Shown here: piece by piece, positions 3,672 to 33,581 of the stretch
How positions within the stretch are numbered: position 1 is the first letter of the stretch
How the letters are laid out: the number at the start of each line of letters is the position of its first letter
Assembly (NCBI GenBank): GCA_046306055.1
Contig: JBKDXR010000085.1
Span: forward strand, 3,774 to 67,773
DNA length: 64,000 nt
Source of the DNA: Flavobacteriales bacterium
GTDB taxonomy: Bacteria; Bacteroidota; Bacteroidia; Flavobacteriales_F; PHOS-HE28
Direction of reading: 5' to 3'
Translations under genes and position numbers: made by a program
Notes under the pieces: model-generated
Databases searched by the model: none
What the model was told of the DNA's origin: nothing
Seen by the model: the letters and a program-made list of their open reading frames with translations, nothing else

Positions 3672-4616
3672 ATGCACCTGCGTCATTCGTTCCCCCTCAT
3701 CCTGACCTGCCTGCTGGCGGGGTTCGGTCATTCCTCCTCCTGGGCCCAGCCCCTCGTTGTGGTCGTTTACGATGAGGAAGGCCGTCCGTTGCCGGGTGCC
3801 CACGTGAGCCTGCGCGACGCGCGCGACCGCGGGGTGAAGCCGACGAGAAAGAAGGACGGCGTCTTCACCTTCGAGGAGGTGCCGGAGGGCTACGATGCCC
3901 TGCAGGTGAAGGCCGCCGGCAAGTTGTTGAACGGCTGCCAGTGGTATGGGTCCCTGCCTGACACGGTGCGGATGACGATGCGCAAGGGGCCGTATTTCCT
4001 GATCGATGAAGGGTATCGTCAACCCCGGCTGGTCTTCGATGAGCGGCGCCTGGAAGTGGACTACCACCGTGGCTTTCGCACGGACAGCCTGCGGCCCTGG
4101 TTCGCGGAACAGGGTCTGGTGTGTGAGCCCCATACCTGCACCTATTTGCGGCGGAAGAACGGCGGCAAGTTCAAGCTGCACCACAACACGGAGTTGGAAG
4201 CGGTGCGCAAGAACCCAGTGGTCAATACGGCCGGGCTCTATGCCGAGCACCAGAAGCGCGATCTCCATGAATGGGTAGGCGTTACGCCGTACGCGGGGCT
4301 CAGCATGACCCAGCAGCACCAGTTCACGGGCATCGTGCGGATCACGTTCAATGGTTCGGCGATGAAGGTGCAGGTTGCCCAGTGGTACCTGATGGAGATC
4401 AACCGGCTGCTCCATGCGTTCGGCTTCCGGTTGACGGAGACCGCTTCCGGCTACGCGGATGAAAGGATACTCTCCGCGGCGTTCAGCGATCGTGGTGTGG
4501 AAGCGAAGCCTGTCTCCGGTCTGGCAGGGCCTTTCCTGATCGGGCAGCTGGAGCAACTGGCGCGGCATCCGTATGTGGGGAAGGTGGAGCTGGTGGTGCC
4601 GATGATGTTGGATTGA
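3672..4616 (+). CDS. Secreted protein with N-terminal carboxypeptidase-regulatory-like domain
   Basis: Signal peptide, then VVVYDEEGRPLPGAHVSL...DGVFTFEEVPEG. Confidence 0.7.
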   Translation: MHLRHSFPLILTCLLAGFGHSSSWAQPLVVVVYDEEGRPLPGAHVSLRDARDRGVKPTRKKDGVFTFEEVPEGYDALQVKAAGKLLNGCQWYGSLPDTVRMTMRKGPYFLIDEGYRQPRLVFDERRLEVDYHRGFRTDSLRPWFAEQGLVCEPHTCTYLRRKNGGKFKLHHNTELEAVRKNPVVNTAGLYAEHQKRDLHEWVGVTPYAGLSMTQQHQFTGIVRITFNGSAMKVQVAQWYLMEINRLLHAFGFRLTETASGYADERILSAAFSDRGVEAKPVSGLAGPFLIGQLEQLARHPYVGKVELVVPMMLD

Positions 4617-5554: not shown

Positions 5555-6570
5555 TGGCACGCATGCCCTATCACTTCCGATCCGTTCTGCTGTTGATCCT
5601 CGTGGTGACGGCCGGTCCGACCCTGGCCCAGCCTCAGCCCCCCGACTTCTGCTTCGTGATCTCCCAGCCCGGCAACGCGGACGATCCCTTGGATCGCCCC
5701 TATGAGGTGAATCAGCACTACCAGGAACGGGTGTTCTACTACAACTCGGACCAGTTCTGGCTGAAGCCCGATACCACGATCACCTTGCAGAGCGGTGATC
5801 TGTTCAAGGAAGGGAACGGTGGTTGGCGCGTGTTCACACCTGTTACCGGTGTAGCCGAAAGCCGCATCCTGGTGGTGATCGCAGGGACCGACACCATGCG
5901 CATCGACCTGCCGGATGACATGCAGCCGCTCATCGACCGGGCGTGGGCGCGCTGGGACCGTCCCTCGCCTGATGTGATCCGCTTTCGCAAGGGACGCTAT
6001 GCCGTGGAGGAATTGATCGCAGAACCAAGGTCGGTGGCTGCGGCGAACACGCTGGCCAAGCGACTGATCACCGCGGATGACGCGGCCTACAAGCAGGATC
6101 TCGCAGCCTTGGAAGAATACTACCGCACCCTTCCGCCGCCCGTTCCGCCGGTGCCGCCTTACTCCCCTCCGCCACCTATGACCGAGGAGGGCTGGGCTGC
6201 GTACTGGGCACAACAACCGCCGTTGAAGGAGGTGCATGTCGACAGCGTGAGCGCCGATACGGTGTGGGTGCGCCTTACCGGTCGCGTGATGCTGGATGGC
6301 GGTTGCGCGAGCGGCATGCCCTTGTTCGGCATCGAAATGCGCACGGACACCGGCTGGGTGGAGCGCATTCCCTTCGACATGACCCAGATGGACTGTGGCA
6401 TGCCGTGGGCGGACTGGGACGATCGCCTGGTCACGCTTCCGGCCCTGCGGTGGAGGGTTTCCGCGCATCAACCCGAGGGGAAGAAGACGATGTCTCCAGG
6501 GAGATACCGGCTGTTCTTCTTGGGCGGGGACCTGAAGCGGTTGTGGACGGAGGCGTTCAACTTCTTGTGA
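5554..6570 (+). CDS. Secreted two-domain hypothetical protein; C-terminal domain homologous to paralogues A/B
   Basis: Signal peptide; GTDTMRIDL...IRFRKG; poly-Pro linker; DTVWVRLTGRVMLDGGCASGMPLFG...MDCGMP...PGRYR. Confidence 0.8.
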   Translation: MARMPYHFRSVLLLILVVTAGPTLAQPQPPDFCFVISQPGNADDPLDRPYEVNQHYQERVFYYNSDQFWLKPDTTITLQSGDLFKEGNGGWRVFTPVTGVAESRILVVIAGTDTMRIDLPDDMQPLIDRAWARWDRPSPDVIRFRKGRYAVEELIAEPRSVAAANTLAKRLITADDAAYKQDLAALEEYYRTLPPPVPPVPPYSPPPPMTEEGWAAYWAQQPPLKEVHVDSVSADTVWVRLTGRVMLDGGCASGMPLFGIEMRTDTGWVERIPFDMTQMDCGMPWADWDDRLVTLPALRWRVSAHQPEGKKTMSPGRYRLFFLGGDLKRLWTEAFNFL

Positions 6571-7411: not shown

Positions 7412-8680
7412 TTACTCCATCCCGGCGACCACCTTTACCGTATGGTCACCGGTGCGCAGTACATACACCCCCGGCGTTCCCACCGCCAGGAAGTGTCGGT
7501 CAGTGGTCGCGGTGGTTGCTTGTACCGGTCGGCCTTGTGCGTCCAGGAGCTGTAGGGTGCCCAGCTTCCGGCCATCCACCGTGTGCACCCACAGGCCACC
7601 TGGTGTGGTGGATACGATCAACCCTGGTGCCTTGTCATCGGCGATGCCTTCTGGCGTCTCCACGCAATAGGGGAGCAGCACGAAGCTCAGATCCACGGGC
7701 AGCGACCATACCACTGGCCAAAGCTCCGTTGACGTTAACCCTGGTCCGGCCACGTAGTACATGGGCGCTCCGCCGGTGGGAGGTGATAGGGGCGATACGT
7801 TCATGCCATAGTTGCCAGGTGTCAGGCAGATCGTGTCCATGTCCTGTTGAACATCCGCCGTGAGCACGAATTGGCCGTTGGCCACATCGCCACCATCGTT
7901 GAAGATGGTCCAATTGAAAGTGCCGATGGGCAGCGCACCACCGAAGTTGCCGAGCGAGGGGTAGACCGCAACGCAGCTGGTGTTCGGGCACAGGTCGAAG
8001 GTCTGCTCCCACGTGCAGGCCAGTGTGGTGGTGAAGCCGGTCCAGAGCTCCAGCCTGCCTTCAAAAGGCCCAACGGGTGCTTCAACGTCGTCCATCAGCC
8101 GCAGCGTGTGCCAGCTGTCCTGTGCAATGGCGAAGTAGGTCACGGTCTCCAATGCGAGCAGATCGCCTTGCGCATCGTAGAGGATGAAGTTCGGATAGTC
8201 GAACTGTTCCACGGTGTTGTGTTGCACATGCACCACGATGGCCGTGTCGCTGAAGTAGGCCCACTGCACATCAATGGTCAGGTCCTCGCAAGGGAACACC
8301 GGTCCGCTCACAGTGAACGTGTGCTGGGCGAGTGGTGCCCCATCGAGGATACCTGTGCTGGCGTCGGTGAAGTCGATGGTGTAGGTGCCGGCGGGCAGCT
8401 GGCCCAGCTCGATCACTTCGGTGTGCGGTACCAACACGGTGATGCCACCATTGCTCATGGCCACCAAGGTGATGCTCACTGTTCCGCCGCTCACATCAGC
8501 CAACGCCGTTTGGATGTAAGCACCACCATCGCTGAGGTTGCCGATCAGCGAAAGGCTCACGTTGTCGGCCGTGGTGGGGTTGGCGGGTTGTACCGCGATC
8601 TGGTCCAGGTAGAAGTAGGTCTGCGCCTGGCCGATCAGGGTCGCGAACAGGAAGAGGAGGATGGATAAGGTCCGGTTCAT
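7412..8680 (-). CDS. Secreted protein with T9SS-type C-terminal sorting domain
   Basis: Signal peptide; Ig-like repeats with paired Cys; C-terminus LLDAQGR...PGVYVLR...TVKVV. Confidence 0.8.
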   Translation of the reverse strand: MNRTLSILLFLFATLIGQAQTYFYLDQIAVQPANPTTADNVSLSLIGNLSDGGAYIQTALADVSGGTVSITLVAMSNGGITVLVPHTEVIELGQLPAGTYTIDFTDASTGILDGAPLAQHTFTVSGPVFPCEDLTIDVQWAYFSDTAIVVHVQHNTVEQFDYPNFILYDAQGDLLALETVTYFAIAQDSWHTLRLMDDVEAPVGPFEGRLELWTGFTTTLACTWEQTFDLCPNTSCVAVYPSLGNFGGALPIGTFNWTIFNDGGDVANGQFVLTADVQQDMDTICLTPGNYGMNVSPLSPPTGGAPMYYVAGPGLTSTELWPVVWSLPVDLSFVLLPYCVETPEGIADDKAPGLIVSTTPGGLWVHTVDGRKLGTLQLLDAQGRPVQATTATTDRHFLAVGTPGVYVLRTGDHTVKVVAGME

Positions 8681-8764
8681 GTGCGGATGACGTTCGTAAG
8701 GTGCGTGAATGCTGCCTGAAGGTACGAACGGCGTGATGAGCGGTGAGCGTTTCCGAGGTCCGCC

Positions 8765-26897: not shown

Positions 26898-27214
26898 AGA
26901 TCGCAGACGATGTAAGGATCAAAAAGGCCACCTACAAGGGTGACTACATCATTCGCTTTCAGTTCACGGATGGTCATGTGTCGGAGATCGACTTCCGTCC
27001 ATTCCTCAGTGGTGCCGGACAGAACCCGATGAACGGTCAGTACTTGGATGTTACCCGGTTCCGGGAGTTCAAACTGCACCGCAACGTGGATGTGTATTGG
27101 GATGACTGGGAGATGTGCTTCCGTTTCGATACACTGTATTCGGGCAAGCTACCCAAGATGCCTAAACAGGTCAGGTCCGTTCGGATGGAACGGACCGCGA
27201 TCAGGACACGCTGA
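26894..27214 (+). CDS. DUF2442 family protein (putative antitoxin)
   Basis: ATYKGDYIIRFQFTDG...DF...W...DTLY; ATGA overlap with the DUF4160 gene. Confidence 0.85.
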   Translation: MKIADDVRIKKATYKGDYIIRFQFTDGHVSEIDFRPFLSGAGQNPMNGQYLDVTRFREFKLHRNVDVYWDDWEMCFRFDTLYSGKLPKMPKQVRSVRMERTAIRTR

Positions 27215-27352
27215 TCATAGGGGCCTTCCTTCAGGAGGTCTTCTTTGCCCTGCCTGCGCTCCTACGCCACCTGCGGCCATATCGGTCACGGCCGCGCCTG
27301 ATGCGCGCTGCGCGTGCGCAACTGCGGAGCGCACGAGGAACTTCATACGACG

Positions 27353-27384
27353 AACAACGGCCCGGGCCTGGTGCCGGGGTTGTT
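27353..27384. terminator. Hairpin between convergent genes
   Basis: AACAACGGCCCGGGC-ctggt-GCCGGGGTTGTT, followed by a second hairpin GATCACCCG...CGGGTGATC. Confidence 0.5.
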
Positions 27385-27450
27385 GGGGATCACCCGGCAT
27401 GGTCGGGTGATCTGCATTGGTACGGAAAGGGAAGGGGCAGGGGCAAGCTC

Positions 27451-27897
27451 TCAAGCCTTCGCGGCCTTGTCGTGGGCCTGCTGCCAGCCGAAGGGGTCCA
27501 CCACTTCGGTGACGGCACCGGCGGCGTGGTGCGCCTGCGGAAAGCCGAGCCTGTTGCGCAGCAGCTGCAGCAGGTAGGGCAGGTAGCGCGTGGTGGGCGG
27601 TGGCGGTGCGGTGGTGTTGTGCAGGTCCTGGTGGCGCACACTGATCAGCGGCACGATGCCCATGCCGATCAGGGGGCTCAGCGCCTGCTCAGCGCGCCAC
27701 AACAGTTCGTTCATGGGGTAGTGGCGCCGGAAAAGGCCGTGGCTGTGCTGTTCCACCGAACAGAGGGCCACGGTGCCTTGTGCGTTCATGGTGTCCACAT
27801 GCACCACCAGGTTGTCGGTCACGCAGCGCCGGGCATTTTCGGCCAGCTGCCGGTCGGTGGTGTGTTGTGTGGGTTTGCGGGGAGTAGCGTTCTTCAT
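27451..27897 (-). CDS. Hypothetical protein
   Basis: 148-aa ORF with host-like codon usage; no recognised motif. Confidence 0.65.
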   Translation of the reverse strand: MKNATPRKPTQHTTDRQLAENARRCVTDNLVVHVDTMNAQGTVALCSVEQHSHGLFRRHYPMNELLWRAEQALSPLIGMGIVPLISVRHQDLHNTTAPPPPTTRYLPYLLQLLRNRLGFPQAHHAAGAVTEVVDPFGWQQAHDKAAKA

Positions 27898-27984
27898 GGG
27901 AAGTGGTGTTCGTGGATAGGGAGAGGAGAGCCCCTGCCGGATCGGGGGCCCTGCCGGCACTGTGCCAGCAAGGCCCCCGGTCAA

Positions 27985-28144
27985 GAAGCCGTCTCATGAT
28001 GTTCTTTGGAAGCGAGCCGGAGGGATTTCGCGACCAGCCAAGGCGCGCGACCCGCGCAGAGCTGGGGCTCTGTAAGGGTTGAGCAACGCCGGATGGTCGC
28101 GAAAGGTCCCGGCGTAGCCCGAAGGATCATAATGAGTTGGCTTC
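27985..28144. repeat. 160-bp long imperfect palindromic element (MITE/RPE-like)
   Basis: Nested arms GAAGCC/GGCTTC, CTCAT/ATGAG, TTTCGCGACCA/TGGTCGCGAAA, inner CAGAGC..GCTCTG. Confidence 0.75.
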
Positions 28145-28184
28145 CATGGTCGGCGGGTGTTCGTCCCACCGGGGTGGGGCAGGC

Positions 28185-28400
28185 TCAGATCGTGTTGATC
28201 AGTTTCTGCACTTCGGCCTCGCTCTTGTGGAGCTTGGTCTGCAAGCGTGCCACCAGCTCGCTCTCCTTACCGGCCACGAACTGGAGGTCGGCGTCGGTGA
28301 GCTGGGTGAATTTGCCCTTGAGCTTGGTCTTGGTGGCGCCCCACGTGTTATCAACGATGGTGAAGGGGGTGGCAACGGGTGTGGTCTTTACGGTATCCAT
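28185..28400 (-). CDS. CsbD-like general stress protein
   Basis: WGATKTKLKGKFTQLTDADLQFVAGKESELVARLQTKLHKSEAEVQKLI. Confidence 0.85.
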   Translation of the reverse strand: MDTVKTTPVATPFTIVDNTWGATKTKLKGKFTQLTDADLQFVAGKESELVARLQTKLHKSEAEVQKLINTI

Positions 28401-28431
28401 GATAGATGGTGTTGTGGCTTTCGAGGGTATC

Positions 28432-28777
28432 GGGCCGCTTGGCTGGCCGGTACCTGGTGGGCGATCGCGGGGTCCCCGCTCGTGGAGCGGGGTGGGGACG
28501 AGCAGCTGTTCCCGGGCCCGGGACAATTGCGCCAACGTGGATCACTTCAAGGGACCGGGGAGCATCGTTACCCGCGATCGAAAGCCGCTTAAAGAATGGA
28601 CGATCTGAGATCGTAGATGAGCAGCGAAGGACTTAAGACAGTGTTTCGCCTTCGGTTGAAGACCACCTACAGGTCTTCGGAAGTTTGGAAGCGGTGCCAA
28701 ACCGAGGACAAGCTAGGTCGGTATGGGCGGATCGGTGCGATAGTTCACAACTAAATGTGGTGTCAAGCACAAAAGGG
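28432..28777. repeat. Duplicated hairpin-rich non-coding element, copy A (upstream of the CsbD-like gene)
   Basis: Aligns with 29664-30009 at offset ~1232; near-identical over the first ~150 bp, then diverging with conserved stems. Confidence 0.9.
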
Positions 28778-28810
28778 CCTGTGCGTGCCGTGCGCGGTGC
28801 GCGCATGCAG

Positions 28811-28838
28811 CAACGCCGCCCTGGTGGGGGCGGCGTTG
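28811..28838 (-). terminator. Hairpin downstream of the OMP gene
   Basis: CAACGCCGCCC-tggtgg-GGGCGGCGTTG perfect 11-bp stem. Confidence 0.6.
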
Positions 28839-28858
28839 GCGATGGGTGCAGGTGGTCT

Positions 28859-29614
28859 CTACTTACTGCCTGCGAAGCGCAGCCGCACACCGGCAATGAT
28901 GTAGGCGTAGTTCACCTTGGGGTTGGTGCTGAACTCATCACCCTTGAACACGTTGCTCATGGCCAAGTGGTAGCCGGCCTCCACGAACACGGGGCCTTAG
29001 CCCAGGCCGCCGCCACCGCCCACGTACCACTGCGTGCCGCGCGTTTCCACTTCGAACTGGTCATCCTCCAGGTTGGTGGTGAGCTGGATGAGGGCCGTGG
29101 GCCCCGCCATGAGGTAGGCGTTGAAGGCGTTGCGCTCAACGGGGTCCAGCAGGTTCACGCCCACCAGCAAAGGCACGCTGAGCATGTTGCTGGTATAGCG
29201 GTACTCCTGCGTGGTCAGGTCGCTGGTGTTGCCCAGGGTGTAGTACAGGTTGCGCACCACGAAGTGGAGGCCCGGCTTGAAGAAGGCCCGGCGGCCAATG
29301 AGCACATCGGCACCGAACTGGTAGCCGCCGCGGCCCACCCACTGTTCGTCGCCGGCATCCTGCACGTTGGAGGCGCTGTAGCCGCCCGATAGGTGAAAGG
29401 TCTGTGCCGTGCCCGAGAGCGCGCTGCAGAGCAGCACAAGCACGAAGGCCACGGGTGTGGGCCTGATGCGTGGACGGCGTGCGGTGCGCGCCGGGGCAGG
29501 CCAGGTGCTGTGCGGTGCCAGTGGCAGCAGCAGCCCCCAGCCGGTGGGGCGCACGTGGTGCGTGTAAGCAATGGCAGCAGGTGCTGCGGTAGGGGAAGTG
29601 TTCAGTAGGCGCAT
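28859..29614 (-). pseudogene. Outer-membrane beta-barrel (PorT/OMP_b-brl-like) interrupted by one in-frame TAA at 28997-28999
   Basis: ...WYVGGGGGLG*GPVFVEAGYHLAMSNVF...YAYIIAGVRLRFAGSK*: the last barrel strands continue in frame beyond the stop. Confidence 0.8.
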
Positions 29615-29663
29615 GGGTATGGAAATGGAACGCGACAGGCGATCGACCGGCGTGTGCCGGCCT

Positions 29664-30009
29664 GGGCCGCTTGGCTGGCCGGTACCTGGTGGGCGATCAC
29701 AGGGTCCCTGCCCGTGGAGCGGGGTGGGGACGTGCAGCGGTTCCCGGGCCCGGGGCAACTGCGCGAACGTGGATCACTTCAAGGGACCGGGGAGCATCGT
29801 TACCCGCGATCGGATGCCGCTTGACGAATGACGATCGGAGATCGCAGATGAGCAGCGAAGGACTTAAGTCCGTGTTTCGCCTTCTGTTGAAGACCACAAG
29901 CGGATCTTCCGAAGCCTGGAAGCGGTGCCAGGCATGTGTACAAGGTAGGTCGCTATTCAGGGATCGGTGCGCGAAAGGGCAACTATATGTTCCACCCCGC
30001 ACGAAAGGG
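29664..30009. repeat. Duplicated hairpin-rich non-coding element, copy B (upstream of the OMP gene)
   Basis: See copy A. Confidence 0.9.
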
Positions 30010-30060
30010 GTTGCACAACCGCGTCCTACTTTCACCGTCCACTGCCACAACGTCCCGCCC

Positions 30061-31641
30061 ATGCAACGAACGCTGACCCTTTGTGCCATGCTGAGCGGCA
30101 CCGCGCTGATGGCGCAGACCAACACCTGGACCTGGGCCTGGGCAGCGGGCAGTGCGGGGTACGAGGAAGGCTATGTGTCCATGGCGCCCAATGGGGCACT
30201 GCACCTGTTGGGCAACTACGCCAACACCATTGATGCGAACGGCACCCCGCTCACCAGCAGCGGCCAGGGCGATGCCTTCGTGCAGCGACTGGACCCCGCC
30301 GATGGCAGTGTACAGTGGACGGCCGAGGCCCACCACACGGACAACCTGTACCTCTACGACATGGCCTATCGCAGCACCGGCGAACTGGTGGTGTGCGGCA
30401 CGGTGGCGCACAACGGTGGCGCCGCACAGTTCGGCCCGTTCACCCTCGCCGGCCAGCCGTTCGGCACACAGGCCTTTGTGGCGGGCCTGTCGCCCAGCGG
30501 CGCGTGGAACTGGGTGAGCGGTGTGGCGGGCGTGGTAAGCACCGATGGCTTCCAGGTGGAAGTGGATGCGAGCGATAACATCCTGCTCGGTTGCAAATGG
30601 GGCAACGGGCTGGCGGTGTACCGCTTCACGGGCCAGGGCCAGCAGGGCTGGTCGGCCACGGCCACCAGCAGCGGCAGCTCGGTGGACCTGTATGCCATGG
30701 ACGTGCTGCCCGGCGGCGATCTGGTGATCACGGGCCGGTGCTATGGCACGGGAACCTTCGGCACGCAGAGCATCACGGTGAGCGGCAACTTCTACGATGC
30801 CTACGTGGCGCGCCTTTCGAGCGCCGGCCAATGGCAGTGGGTGGCCCAGGCGGGCGGCAGCAACTGGGACAAGGGCTTTGGCGTGTGCGCCGATGCCACG
30901 GGCGATGTGTATGTGGCGGGCACCTTCCGCAACACGGCCACCTTCGGCACCACCGCGCTAACGGCCACCGGCAGCAACAACGATGGCTGGCTGGCCAAGC
31001 TCGATGGCAATGGCCAATGGCTGTGGGCCGTGCAGATGGGCTCCATCGCCTACATGGAAGTGTATGGCATGGACATGAACGACGCCGGCGATCGGCTGGC
31101 CTTGACGGGCAACTACGCCTTCAACACGCCCACCATCGGCGGCATCGCACTGCCCACGCCCACGCTGAACGACCTGTACGTGGTGGAGTACAACACCACC
31201 GGTCAGGTGCTGAGCGCATTGGGCGTTGGTGGCGCCGGTGGCGACCGCGGCATGGCCGCGGCGTATGGCGCGGGCAATGCGTTGTACGTGGCGGGCAGCT
31301 TCGGTGCCGACATGCAGTTGGGTGCCGACCAGCTCACGTGCGTTTCAACGCCCGACCTGTGGGTGGGCCGTTTGGATGCCGACCTCACCACCGCAGTGCA
31401 GGGCCCGGACGCGAAGACCATGACCGTGTACTACGATGCTGCGGCACACACGGTGGACTTCCGCGGTGTGGAAGGCGATGCCTGGCACGTGGAGCTGTTG
31501 GACGCGAGCGGCAGGCGCGTGGCCACAGGCACCACTGCGCGGCCGTTGCCCGTACCCTCGTACCTGCGCCAAGGCATGCTGCTCGTTACCCTGGTGCGCG
31601 GCGATGTGCGGTACACGGAGCGCGTGGCGGTGATGCGGTAA
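30061..31641 (+). CDS. Secreted SBBP-like beta-propeller protein with T9SS-like CTD
   Basis: Signal peptide; repeated DAFVxxLxxxGxWxW and GDVYVAGTF blades; C-terminal LLDASGRRV. Confidence 0.85.
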   Translation: MQRTLTLCAMLSGTALMAQTNTWTWAWAAGSAGYEEGYVSMAPNGALHLLGNYANTIDANGTPLTSSGQGDAFVQRLDPADGSVQWTAEAHHTDNLYLYDMAYRSTGELVVCGTVAHNGGAAQFGPFTLAGQPFGTQAFVAGLSPSGAWNWVSGVAGVVSTDGFQVEVDASDNILLGCKWGNGLAVYRFTGQGQQGWSATATSSGSSVDLYAMDVLPGGDLVITGRCYGTGTFGTQSITVSGNFYDAYVARLSSAGQWQWVAQAGGSNWDKGFGVCADATGDVYVAGTFRNTATFGTTALTATGSNNDGWLAKLDGNGQWLWAVQMGSIAYMEVYGMDMNDAGDRLALTGNYAFNTPTIGGIALPTPTLNDLYVVEYNTTGQVLSALGVGGAGGDRGMAAAYGAGNALYVAGSFGADMQLGADQLTCVSTPDLWVGRLDADLTTAVQGPDAKTMTVYYDAAAHTVDFRGVEGDAWHVELLDASGRRVATGTTARPLPVPSYLRQGMLLVTLVRGDVRYTERVAVMR

Positions 31642-32391: not shown

Positions 32392-32709
32392 GCCAATGCT
32401 TGTCGTGCTCGCGCGCCATGGACCAGAGCGCACGGGGGAAGGAATACGGGCACATACCACTTATGGAAGGAGGCGTGTAGCGTTTGGCCACGCATTGATC
32501 ACGGGCATTCCGTTCGGAGGCAATGACCCTTGCGGGAGCAGCGCTGGCGTAACGGAACGTTGCAGGAATACCGGTGTGCCGCCAGGTTTATTACGGCCTG
32601 ATCGTCGGCGCTGGGTGCAAAGGTGCCTACCTTGTACCCGATACCCCGGCGCTTTTGCCGGATTCTACACGTCGCAGCATAACTACTGCGGCACAATAAG
32701 GTCAGTACA

Positions 32710-32901
32710 ATGTCAAGTGGTACAGTGAAGTTCTTCAACACGGAGAAAGGTTTTGGTTTCATCACCCCGGATGAGGGCGGTAAGGACGTGTTCGTCCACA
32801 AGACCGGGACCCGTGATAACATCCAGGAGGGCGACAAGGTCACCTTCGAGGTGGAGCAGGGCCCCAAGGGTCTGAACGCAGTGAACGTAAAGCGCAGCTA
32901 A
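32710..32901 (+). CDS. Cold-shock protein (CspA family)
   Basis: [15 protein letters not shown]...DVFVH...[10 protein letters not shown]. Confidence 0.97.
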
Positions 32902-32980: not shown

Positions 32981-33196
32981 TTACAGCCGGGCGATGAGGG
33001 CCTCCACTTCATCCGCGCTTTTGCCCAGACGGGCTTGCAGGCGGGCCACCAGGGCGGCCTCTTCGCCCTCCACGTACAGCAGGTCGGTATCACTGAGCTG
33101 GCCGAAGAGGTTGCGGAGCTTGAACTTCTTGTGGCCCCAGGTGCCCGGGGCAATGCGTAGTGGTGAGGTGGGGCCGGAGGGGATGTTGTCTGCCAT
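32981..33196 (-). CDS. Second CsbD-like protein
   Basis: WGHKKFKLRNLFGQLSDTDLLYVEGEEAALVARLQARLGKSADEVEALI. Confidence 0.8.
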   Translation of the reverse strand: MADNIPSGPTSPLRIAPGTWGHKKFKLRNLFGQLSDTDLLYVEGEEAALVARLQARLGKSADEVEALIARL

Positions 33197-33581
33197 GTGC
33201 GTGTGGGTGTGCATGCGGTGGTGCCGCTTGCAGGGGGTGTTGTTCCCGTGCGTATCGGGTGATGTTCCGCTTGCACCTTGCGGTGCGGGGTCCTTTGCGC
33301 GGGACCTTCCTTGCCAGCCTGCGGGGACCGGCACGGAGTACAAGGTACGCCAAGAGAGGGCCGAACGGACCGAAGCACCGTAATGCGCAAGGGGCGGAGG
33401 TCATCCCATCGATCATTGCCCCCGATCCCGCCGATCAATACCAGCGATTAAACCGACCGCGGATCGGTGCGTCCAAGCGAATGTCACATTTGCATCAACG
33501 GTCAGTTAACTGCACGTGATGGACCGCCGAACGCAACCTGCATGAACCCTTTTGCCCCTCCTGCCCATGATCGTTGAACGT

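Follow-up and report, generated by a model that had tools for sequence, protein, structure and literature searches.

Proteins of the CsbD/YjbJ type are widespread stress markers whose function, and whose regulation outside the Firmicutes, is poorly understood. In the Bacteroidota, which initiate translation without the lead of a Shine-Dalgarno (SD) sequence, cis-regulatory RNAs are sparsely catalogued; among bacterial mRNAs generally, 5'-terminal stabilizer hairpins are exemplified by the 5' untranslated region (UTR) of Escherichia coli ompA. A search of the full-text literature for csbD together with RNA motifs or riboswitches returned only the YjbJ motif of Streptococcus, and nothing on csbD UTRs in flavobacteria. 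This motif (WRC-39-1; Nucleic Acids Res 2024, PMC11109978) is described as a weak riboswitch candidate upstream of a CsbD-family gene. It consists of two hairpins; U residues precede the second, which serves as an intrinsic terminator, and an SD sequence follows after about 30 nt. Here we describe a 346-bp direct repeat in a 64,000-nucleotide stretch of DNA from a Flavobacteriales bacterium (assembly GCA_046306055.1, contig JBKDXR010000085.1, positions 3,774 to 67,773; hereafter the window), one copy of which precedes a CsbD/YjbJ-like gene and the other a gene for an outer membrane protein (OMP). We regard it as likely that the repeat is a cassette of promoter plus structured 5' leader, read on the minus strand, that had csbD as its ancestral cargo and was copied once ahead of the OMP gene; how the leader acts is graded lower than what the cassette and leader are. 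The repeat is neither a free-standing noncoding RNA (ncRNA) nor a mobile element.

The two copies lie at 28432 to 28777 (copy 1) and 29664 to 30009 (copy 2) and are about 87% identical. This duplication, first proposed in an earlier note made from the sequence alone, is borne out by a repeat search of the window and by BLAST of copy 1 against the 3.68-Mb assembly, which matches exactly two places (100%, and 87% over positions 1 to 308 of the 346-nt query). The repeat search resolves two blocks, 28432-28598 against 29664-29830 (92% over 167 nt) and 28599-28699 against 29830-29930 (87% over 101 nt), and the spacing between copies is 1,232 in the first and 1,231 in the second, which implies a 1-nt indel between the blocks; in the pairwise alignment, similarity dwindles toward 28777 and 30009. 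The indels that the same note held to break any shared reading frame are present between the copies (1 nt) and among species (gaps of 1 to 13 nt). Candidate coding sequences within the repeat were rejected: a 52-aa sense open reading frame (ORF; 28700..28542) and a 45-aa plus-strand ORF (28617..28754) lose frame between copies and across species, and a 7-codon upstream ORF is not conserved. The two genes headed by the copies are as follows.

28185..28400, minus strand: CsbD/YjbJ-like gene (71 aa), the ORF directly downstream of copy 1 and the ancestral cargo of the leader, covered by RNA contigs.
28859..29614, minus strand: OMP beta-barrel gene headed by copy 2, identified by an OMP_b-brl_2 profile match.

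The CsbD-like ORF (28400..28185) suits its family in length and alignment span, with profile scores below the curated cut-offs (Pfam CsbD PF05532, 19.5 bits against 40; NCBIfam PRK10428/YjbJ, 26.2 bits against 113), and the OMP ORF from 29614 scores 30.9 bits against a cut-off of 27 for OMP_b-brl_2. From the end of the copy to the ATG on the minus strand there are 31 nt for csbD (ATG at 28400) and about 50 nt for the OMP gene (ATG at 29614). Each copy begins, in the sense direction, with DNA that resembles a promoter and continues as leader; the parts, listed in sense order for copy 1, are named here for use throughout (types A and B are leader types set out below).

28748..28756, minus strand: AT-rich box, sense ATTTAGTTG, from alignments, about 33 to 35 nt upstream of the -7-type box.
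28729..28738, minus strand: GCACCGATCC box of the -33 region, conserved in types A and B, without covariation.
28708..28715, minus strand: -7-type box TAGCTTGT, which fits TAnnTTGY and reads TACCTTGT in most relatives.
28683..28702, minus strand: hairpin H1, GUUUGG-CACCGCUU-CCAAAC, with CCGCUU in its loop, at the predicted 5' end of the transcript.
28658..28678, minus strand: hairpin H2, GAAGACC-UGUAGGU-GGUCUUC, close to invariant within type A, loop as well as stem.
28625..28654, minus strand: variable hairpin H3, CGAAGG...CCUUCG, 87.2% paired, with double changes in two of six pairs.
28601..28624, minus strand: conserved single-stranded CUGCUCAUCUA, then the small hairpin H4, CGAUC-UCA-GAUCG, poorly conserved (64.8% paired).
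28584..28590, minus strand: box 1, AAGCGGC, complementary to the H1 loop CCGCUU.
28443..28580, minus strand: insertion domain, found in long type A leaders only, as folded by RNAalifold on 17 long leaders, with the following four elements.
28555-28576, minus strand: hairpin CGGG/CCCG.
28539-28546 with 28462-28469, minus strand: helix P5, GUGAUC(C) with (C)GAUCGC.
28511-28522, minus strand: hairpin CCCG-GGCC-CGGG.
28474-28492, minus strand: hairpin CCCCGCUC-CAC-GAGCGGGG.
28434..28440, minus strand: box 2, AAGCGGC(CCG), situated 34 nt before the ATG of csbD and just inside the end of the repeat.
29940-29947, 29961-29970 and 29980-29988, minus strand: in copy 2, by alignment with copy 1, the TACCTTGT, GCACCGATCC and AT-rich boxes, respectively.
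29914-29933, 29889-29909, 29816-29822 and 29666-29672, minus strand: in copy 2, by alignment, H1, H2 (its loop now UCCGCUUGU), box 1 and box 2, respectively.

The upstream 75 nt or so of each copy (28704-28777 in copy 1) are conserved in sequence without covariation and hold three boxes (AT-rich, GCACCGATCC and TAnnTTGY). The AT-rich box, which in relatives reads AACTATAGTT (often a perfect 10- to 12-bp palindrome) or TTTATT, is a probable promoter-upstream or regulator site, and the -7-type box is near-invariant in 37 leaders. In the account of Flavobacterium psychrophilum promoters given in PMC9723704, a TAnnTTGY box occupies -12 to -5 of mapped starts; by this rule, transcription of the leaders is predicted to begin at about 28703 in copy 1 and about 29935 in copy 2, and this predicted +1 coincides exactly with the first base of H1. 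In this genome, TACCTTGNNCC occurs at 17 sites, 7 of which are followed by an ATG (a putative start) within 1 to 7 nt, a pattern that suggests leaderless or very-short-leader mRNAs from TAnnTTGY-type promoters in this high-GC flavobacterium. Other promoter models were discarded. An extracytoplasmic function (ECF)-type -35/-10 pair, GCACC-N17-CGTA/CTAC, finds no enrichment of CACCG-N10-22-TACCTTG (12 sites against 26 for the control), with two extra CACCGAT...TACCTT sites ahead of an asparaginase-like gene and an unclear ORF; a sigma-54 promoter in H1 (TGGCAC-N5-TTGC) lacks the -12 GC in both copies. A fixed-spacing promoter was dropped on account of a third leader type, C, in which GCACCGATCC (33461-33470) lies 113 nt upstream of the TACCTTGT box, so that the spacing of the two boxes is not fixed.

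The leader measures about 300 nt, of which the repeat holds about 270 nt after the promoter part, and reads H1, H2, H3, the CUGCUCAUCUA/GAUC hairpin, box 1, the insertion domain, box 2, 33 A/C-rich nt and the AUG. The earlier note had divided the element into a gene-proximal, riboswitch-like leader of about 110 nt and a distal, separate ncRNA or operator array, a division that is not supported: the distal portion resembles promoter DNA, as described above, and everything from about 28703 down to the ATG forms a single 5' leader. Nor is the RNA core gene-proximal; the best-conserved portion is instead the promoter-proximal 120 to 150 nt (H1-H2-H3-box 1), and the gene-proximal 140 nt or so make up the insertion domain, which is present only in long forms. 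In the short forms of other species, box 1 lies 17 to 30 nt from the AUG.

Selection on RNA-type structure, as the note had proposed, is supported by covariation in H1, H2 and P5, counted on MAFFT alignments made without reference to the structure (36 distinct sequences for H1 and H2). Five of the six pairs of H1 change on both sides while 93.7% of cells stay paired; in H2 (93.6% paired), two of seven pairs do so in divergent members (CG to UA in three, AU to GC in two), yielding the forms GAAGAUC/GAUCUUC and GAGGAUC/GAUCC. Over both hairpins, 93.6% of cells are paired against 30 to 55% when partners are slid by 1 to 3 columns, double changes affect 7 of 13 pairs, and the covariation score was reached by none of 500 column shuffles (which ignore relatedness). 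The stems named in the earlier note are all found in the sequence, among them the one that it saw covary between copies (GTTTGG/CCAAAC at 28683-28702 against GCCTGG/CCAGGC at 29914-29933), in which two pairs are compensated around an identical loop and which also covaries genus-wide. A different hairpin (GUCCC...GGGAC) takes the place of H3 in four species, and of the 48 pairs that RNAalifold gives for the 17 long leaders, 8 show double changes. The leader is multi-helical, with H1, H2, H3 and P5 covarying and with the H2 loop and CUGCUCAUCUA invariant; the start region is A/C-rich and unpaired in folds, and we saw no U-tract terminator. None of 100 shuffles of the copy 1 leader folds as well as the leader itself (z = -3.49). 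Two further interactions were considered and rejected, namely pairing of the H2 loop GUAGGU with an upstream ACCUAC (loop variants GUAGAU are uncompensated, and the partner lies upstream of the predicted +1) and complementarity of GUGAUCC to the 3' end of 16S rRNA, which P5 covariation contradicts.

The leader travels with CsbD-like genes. BLAST gave matches in 30 of 131 genomes of the same genus, and with loci oriented in the minus-strand sense, a CsbD-like ORF lies directly downstream in 28 of the 30, the two exceptions being chance matches of 31 to 34 nt. A covariance model (R1) built on the 165-nt core of 30 sequences matches 42 of the 131 genomes, 30 of them at 65 bits or more, and scores copy 2 at 162.1 bits; among 147 genomes from 61 other families of the class, it matches none. 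Copies number mostly one per genome in relatives. In public metagenome contigs, an exact-pattern scan returned 15 contigs, every one confirmed by R1, and the strong matches are followed by a CsbD-like gene in 15 of 16 cases and in the 16th, on a contig with both copies, by the OMP gene; a loose-pattern scan of genome contigs gave, among the matches listed, 4 of 80 loci that are real by the covariance model, all in Flavobacteriales metagenome-assembled genomes, a result that has no bearing on absence elsewhere. The leader family is restricted to one uncultured Flavobacteriales genus, where it precedes CsbD/YjbJ-like genes and a few other small genes.

The weak R1 matches (23 to 45 bits) are not noise and represent a second leader type, B, which shares with type A the AT-rich box, GCACCGATC, (C)GTACCTTGT, the first hairpin, GAAGACC and paired GAUC sites, and whose box reads AAGUGG. 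Its cargo is a more distant CsbD-like paralogue and a 57-aa gene, and one instance occurs in the window's own genome, on a contig other than that of the type A cassettes. Type C, which R1 did not detect among its matches in this genome, lies within the window.

33197..33347, minus strand: type C leader upstream of a second CsbD-like paralogue (coding sequence 32981-33196), with TACCTTGT at 33340-33347, a 5' hairpin, and two AAGCGG boxes at 33267-33272 and 33224-33229.

Weaker or variant leaders precede csbD paralogues, a 148-aa gene (directly in locus L062) and the 57-aa gene (directly in L067); the leader is therefore not tied to one gene but characterizes a small group of genes for small proteins. 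Two loci show cassettes in other arrangements. In L042, from one relative, a type A cassette (leader, csbD and the 148-aa "up" gene; 1501-1664) and a type B cassette (2763-2898) follow each other head to tail on one strand at a distance of 1.1 kb. Metagenome contig L210 holds two complete type A cassettes of this kind, at 3936-4100 (plus strand) and 8533-8692 (minus strand), with scores of 161.6 and 112.6 bits, as well as a type B leader at 5600-5733 (plus strand), within 5 kb; here the system has undergone another duplication, one that involved the whole operon. In the window's genome, the cargo ORF of type B, which begins MDHIRFDT, diverges after a few residues from the MDHHRP...LETWLAKR of other species and may be frameshifted or fast-evolving.

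The H1 loop CCGCUU is complementary to the AAGCGG of both box 1 and box 2. Within type A, the six loop-box pairs are 90.6% paired and almost invariant; in type B, the loop UCACUU faces the box AAGUGG, an A:U pair having replaced G:C, and the hybrid L067 combines type B architecture with a loop CCGCUU and the box AGGCGG. In a crude count over 58 distinct leaders, with the box sought 40 to 125 nt downstream, loops of the CGC type are accompanied by A[AG]GCG in 34 of 46 cases and by A[AG]GUG in 4, and loops of the CAC type by A[AG]GUG in 10 of 12 and by A[AG]GCG in 1. RNAalifold offers alternatives: box 1 with the GCUG of CUGCUCAU, and the 5' arm plus loop of H1 (YGG-CA-CCGCUU) with AAGCGG-N-CCR of box 2 (columns 18-28 with 283-292, the pair 18/292 being CG in 8, UG in 5 and UA in 3). 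The latter pairing would compete with H1 and close the whole leader, a switch that is speculative. A genome-wide scan for box, hairpin and loop complement gave 28 of 887 sites, mostly chance. On balance, a pseudoknot between the H1 loop and a box is plausible, and we would put it at about an even chance.

If the cassette is promoter plus leader, the leader would most likely act in cis and post-transcriptionally: a stress signal or bound factor would be the trigger, mRNA stability, access to the A/C-rich start region or both would depend on the 5'-terminal H1 and on pairing of its loop with a box, and the shared stress-type promoter would add transcriptional coregulation. A bolder extension, which we hold only tentatively and think unlikely as it stands, would treat types A, B and C as sensory RNAs of a new class that control a small general-stress regulon (the CsbD/YjbJ paralogues, two small proteins and, after the duplication, the OMP) and work by pairing of the H1 loop with AAGYGG boxes near the start codon, the long form switching between H1 and a closing helix with box 2. 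Somewhat less probable still is a ligand-sensing riboswitch, in which an aptamer for a stress-related small molecule or ion would be formed by the H1-H2-H3-box core, alone or together with the insertion domain, and the loop-box pairing or the H1/box 2 alternative would be the switch. This reading draws on the multi-helix core of 120 to 150 nt with its covarying stems, invariant loop and linker nucleotides and candidate pseudoknot, on the occurrence of the same leader ahead of several different small stress genes, on the possibly exclusive pairing of the H1 5' arm and loop with box 2, and on the description of a weak riboswitch candidate ahead of a CsbD-family gene, the YjbJ motif, in PMC11109978. 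However, the leader has no recognizable expression platform (no U-tract terminator, and a start region that is A/C-rich and unpaired), its distribution is confined to a single genus, the three types share only H1, the box and a few motifs, such that a common binding pocket is not evident, and the genes give no clue to a ligand.

Control at the level of DNA only, with the palindromes (GAAGACC-N7-GGTCTTC, AACTATAGTT and the GATC sites) serving as regulator or methylation sites and with RNA structure incidental, is improbable. It would account for H2 being an almost invariant perfect inverted repeat, loop included, for an AT-rich box that is a perfect palindrome in several species, for the equally good folding of both strands, and for GATC at 2.5 to 3 times its expectation. 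That GATC occurs 6 to 7 times per copy, as noted before, is correct (6 and 7, against 2.4 expected from a genome density of 6.87/kb; Poisson P of about 0.03 and 0.01), and the excess is mild. Part of it is due to the GAUC:GAUC helix P5, in which two distant GAUC sites change jointly to GUAC:GUAC (L017) and to the nonpalindromic GGUC:GACC (L022), covariation that weakens the methylation-site reading. DNA-level control would also leave unexplained that H1 stays paired while five of its six pairs change, that H2 shifts to GAAGAUC/GAUCUUC and GAGGAUC/GAUCC, and that unrelated hairpins replace H3 in place, and it sits poorly with a region that lies downstream of the sole conserved promoter-like box and is present in RNA contigs.

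Sequence of the leader is indeed present in RNA libraries, contiguous with csbD, which is all that the RNA contigs show. One metatranscriptome contig (depth 871), at 27659-28622, takes in csbD and 220 nt of leader without a break; a second, from a different study, lies within the leader at 28409-28661, and a third covers the 3' part of the OMP gene; the contigs reach neither 28662-28767 nor copy 2, which is no evidence of silence there. We assign the sense strand because of the fixed orientation to the downstream gene, the promoter box, and G-U pairs specific to that strand in several helices, including type B hairpins that covary (e.g., GCCG/CGGC to GCCC/GGGC). An independent small RNA gene on either strand that merely sits beside csbD, copy 2 being a second such gene, is very improbable: the conserved core does end some 17 to 170 nt before the ATG, folding does not pick a strand, and RNA contigs stop inside the element, but there is no terminator between core and csbD, leader and csbD are continuous on one RNA contig, orientation to the downstream gene is fixed in all loci examined, csbD has no other promoter-like box, and the core abuts the start codon in short forms.

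The history of the repeat agrees with a promoter-plus-leader cassette copied once. In a maximum-likelihood tree of the 346-nt segment, the copy 2 sequences of two species cluster (support, 99/97) apart from the copy 1 sequences of four species, and all six are separated from the two nearest outgroup species (support, 100/100); identities are 93 to 95% among copy 1 orthologues, 90% between the copy 2 sequences, and 83 to 86% between copies 1 and 2. Tree and identities together therefore point to one duplication in the ancestor of the clade, with faster change in copy 2. Copy 2 has had its H2 loop replaced, has kept H1 through two compensatory changes, and retains both AAGCGG boxes and all promoter boxes. 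In five related genomes, the OMP has no close orthologue (identity of at most 35%), which makes the gene behind the copied cassette lineage-specific; as the repeat stops shortly after box 2, the final 30 to 50 nt of each leader belong to the respective gene. A portable regulatory cassette ahead of two unrelated genes, as first suggested for this repeat, is thus supported. The suggestion that it belongs to no known Rfam family also stands: an Rfam 15 E-value scan of 27000-31500 gave only two chance, miRNA-like matches (E of 0.33 and 0.91) on a hairpin at 27941-27981, and a scan of four related loci gave only subthreshold cspA matches on neighboring csp genes. Repeat search revealed no terminal inverted repeats joining the ends of either copy, and alignment showed flanks that differ, with no short direct repeat. 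A mobile element or a neutral segmental duplication with a functionless copy 2 is scarcely credible. In favor of it are the 346-bp direct repeat, the longer branches of copy 2, its loss of the H2 loop sequence and of fold significance, and a stop codon in its cargo gene in this assembly; against it are the presence of only two copies without terminal inverted repeats and single-copy synteny with csbD across the genus (which together rule out the end of a miniature inverted-repeat transposable element or insertion sequence, a possibility raised before), the retention of copy 2 in a second species with H1 preserved by two compensatory changes and with both boxes and all promoter boxes intact, and the absence of the OMP stop codon from three orthologues and from RNA.

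Several results weigh against a promoter-plus-leader cassette or against parts of it. The copy 2 leader, with its changed H2 loop, folds no better than shuffles (z = -1.57; 7 of 100). Little information comes from H2 and from most of the pseudoknot, which do not vary within type A; the sequences being related, the loop-box covariation between types A and B represents perhaps two or three independent events. No terminator or start-site-sequestering structure was found in the leader, the distance from box to ATG varies from 17 to about 95 nt, and some leaders (L061, L063 and L066/L068) have no recognizable box or H1. R1 finds the leader in only about a third of the genus, and across the genome TACCTTGNNCC shows no enrichment (17 sites, compared with 78 for the reversed control). 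The RNA contigs are unstranded, come from libraries that may contain DNA, and end (at 28622 and 28661) short of the predicted +1; RNAalifold energies fail to separate the strands, and G-U and A-C counts in H1 and H2 are balanced.

The surroundings of the repeat include two further features on its strand.

27451..27897, minus strand: "up" gene of 148 aa and no known family, often downstream of csbD in relatives and directly after a leader in L062.
28811..28838, minus strand: 10-bp hairpin, rich in GC and without a T run, that lies between copy 1 and the OMP stop codon, read from the sequence.

An RNA fragment near the hairpin at 28811-28838 ends at 28768, and this hairpin is possibly the end of the OMP transcript. 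The second hairpin, at 27941-27981 (minus strand), is a near-perfect, GC-rich, 19-bp structure between csbD (stop at 28185) and the 148-aa gene (ATG at 27897) and may be a terminator or attenuator between them. In this assembly, an in-frame TAA at 28997-28999 (minus strand) splits the OMP ORF; the codon is TAC (Tyr) in three orthologues (L003, L004 and L013) and in one metatranscriptome contig, and the TAA must stem from a recent nonsense mutation or from an error in assembly or sequencing. Elsewhere in the window, the region upstream of a csp gene (32710-32901, plus strand; region 32590-32901) has the promoter-plus-5'-hairpin layout of the csbD leaders: TTTATT, CCTACCTTGTACCC (box at 32628-32635), a hairpin CCGGC-GCUUUU-GCCGG at 32646-32661, and then the ATG at 32710.

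A structured leader that occurs genus-wide in three or more sequence types, each associated with CsbD paralogues, offers a handle on the control of csbD in freshwater Flavobacteriales, and the duplication indicates that promoter and leader can move as one unit and bring a new gene, here that of the OMP, under the same control. Were the sensory-RNA extension true, the duplication would represent the recruitment of a gene to a regulon by joint copying of promoter and riboregulator, caught in the act. The scope, one uncultured genus with a mechanism that we infer, is narrow.

Comparison with described systems places the leader near several of them. Like stabilizers of the ompA type, it is long, opens with a hairpin at its 5' terminus (here a predicted position) and is portable ahead of another gene; unlike them, the csbD leader is far more elaborate, and its H1 loop bears a conserved complementary box. 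With the cspA thermoregulator (RF01766) and other sensors in the 5' UTRs of stress genes, it shares a long, structured 5' UTR on the gene of a small stress protein, and the csp gene of the window has the -7-type box of the csbD leaders followed by a 5' hairpin; in contrast, there is no match in sequence or structure, and the RF01766 matches in two related loci fall on neighboring csp genes at 39.2 and 37.1 against a gathering score of 78. As with the YjbJ motif described in PMC11109978, a conserved and covarying 5' element precedes a general-stress gene of the CsbD/YjbJ family within one genus; compared by description only, the present leader differs in its 170 to 300 nt, its four or more helices, the absence of a U stretch or U-tract terminator, its SD-less phylum and its loop-box pairing. 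The flavobacterial promoter motif SM5 (TAnnTTGY at -12 to -5; ISME Commun 2021, PMC9723704) is fitted by both TACCTTGT and TAGCTTGT, which lie at a fixed short distance before H1 and, elsewhere in the genome, before start codons; SM5 comes from a low-GC Flavobacterium, and its description does not extend to GCACCGATCC or the AT-rich boxes. Set beside these systems, the leader family has not been described before: it comprises structured 5' leaders of CsbD/YjbJ-type genes, is restricted to one genus, and has recently undergone a duplication of promoter plus leader.

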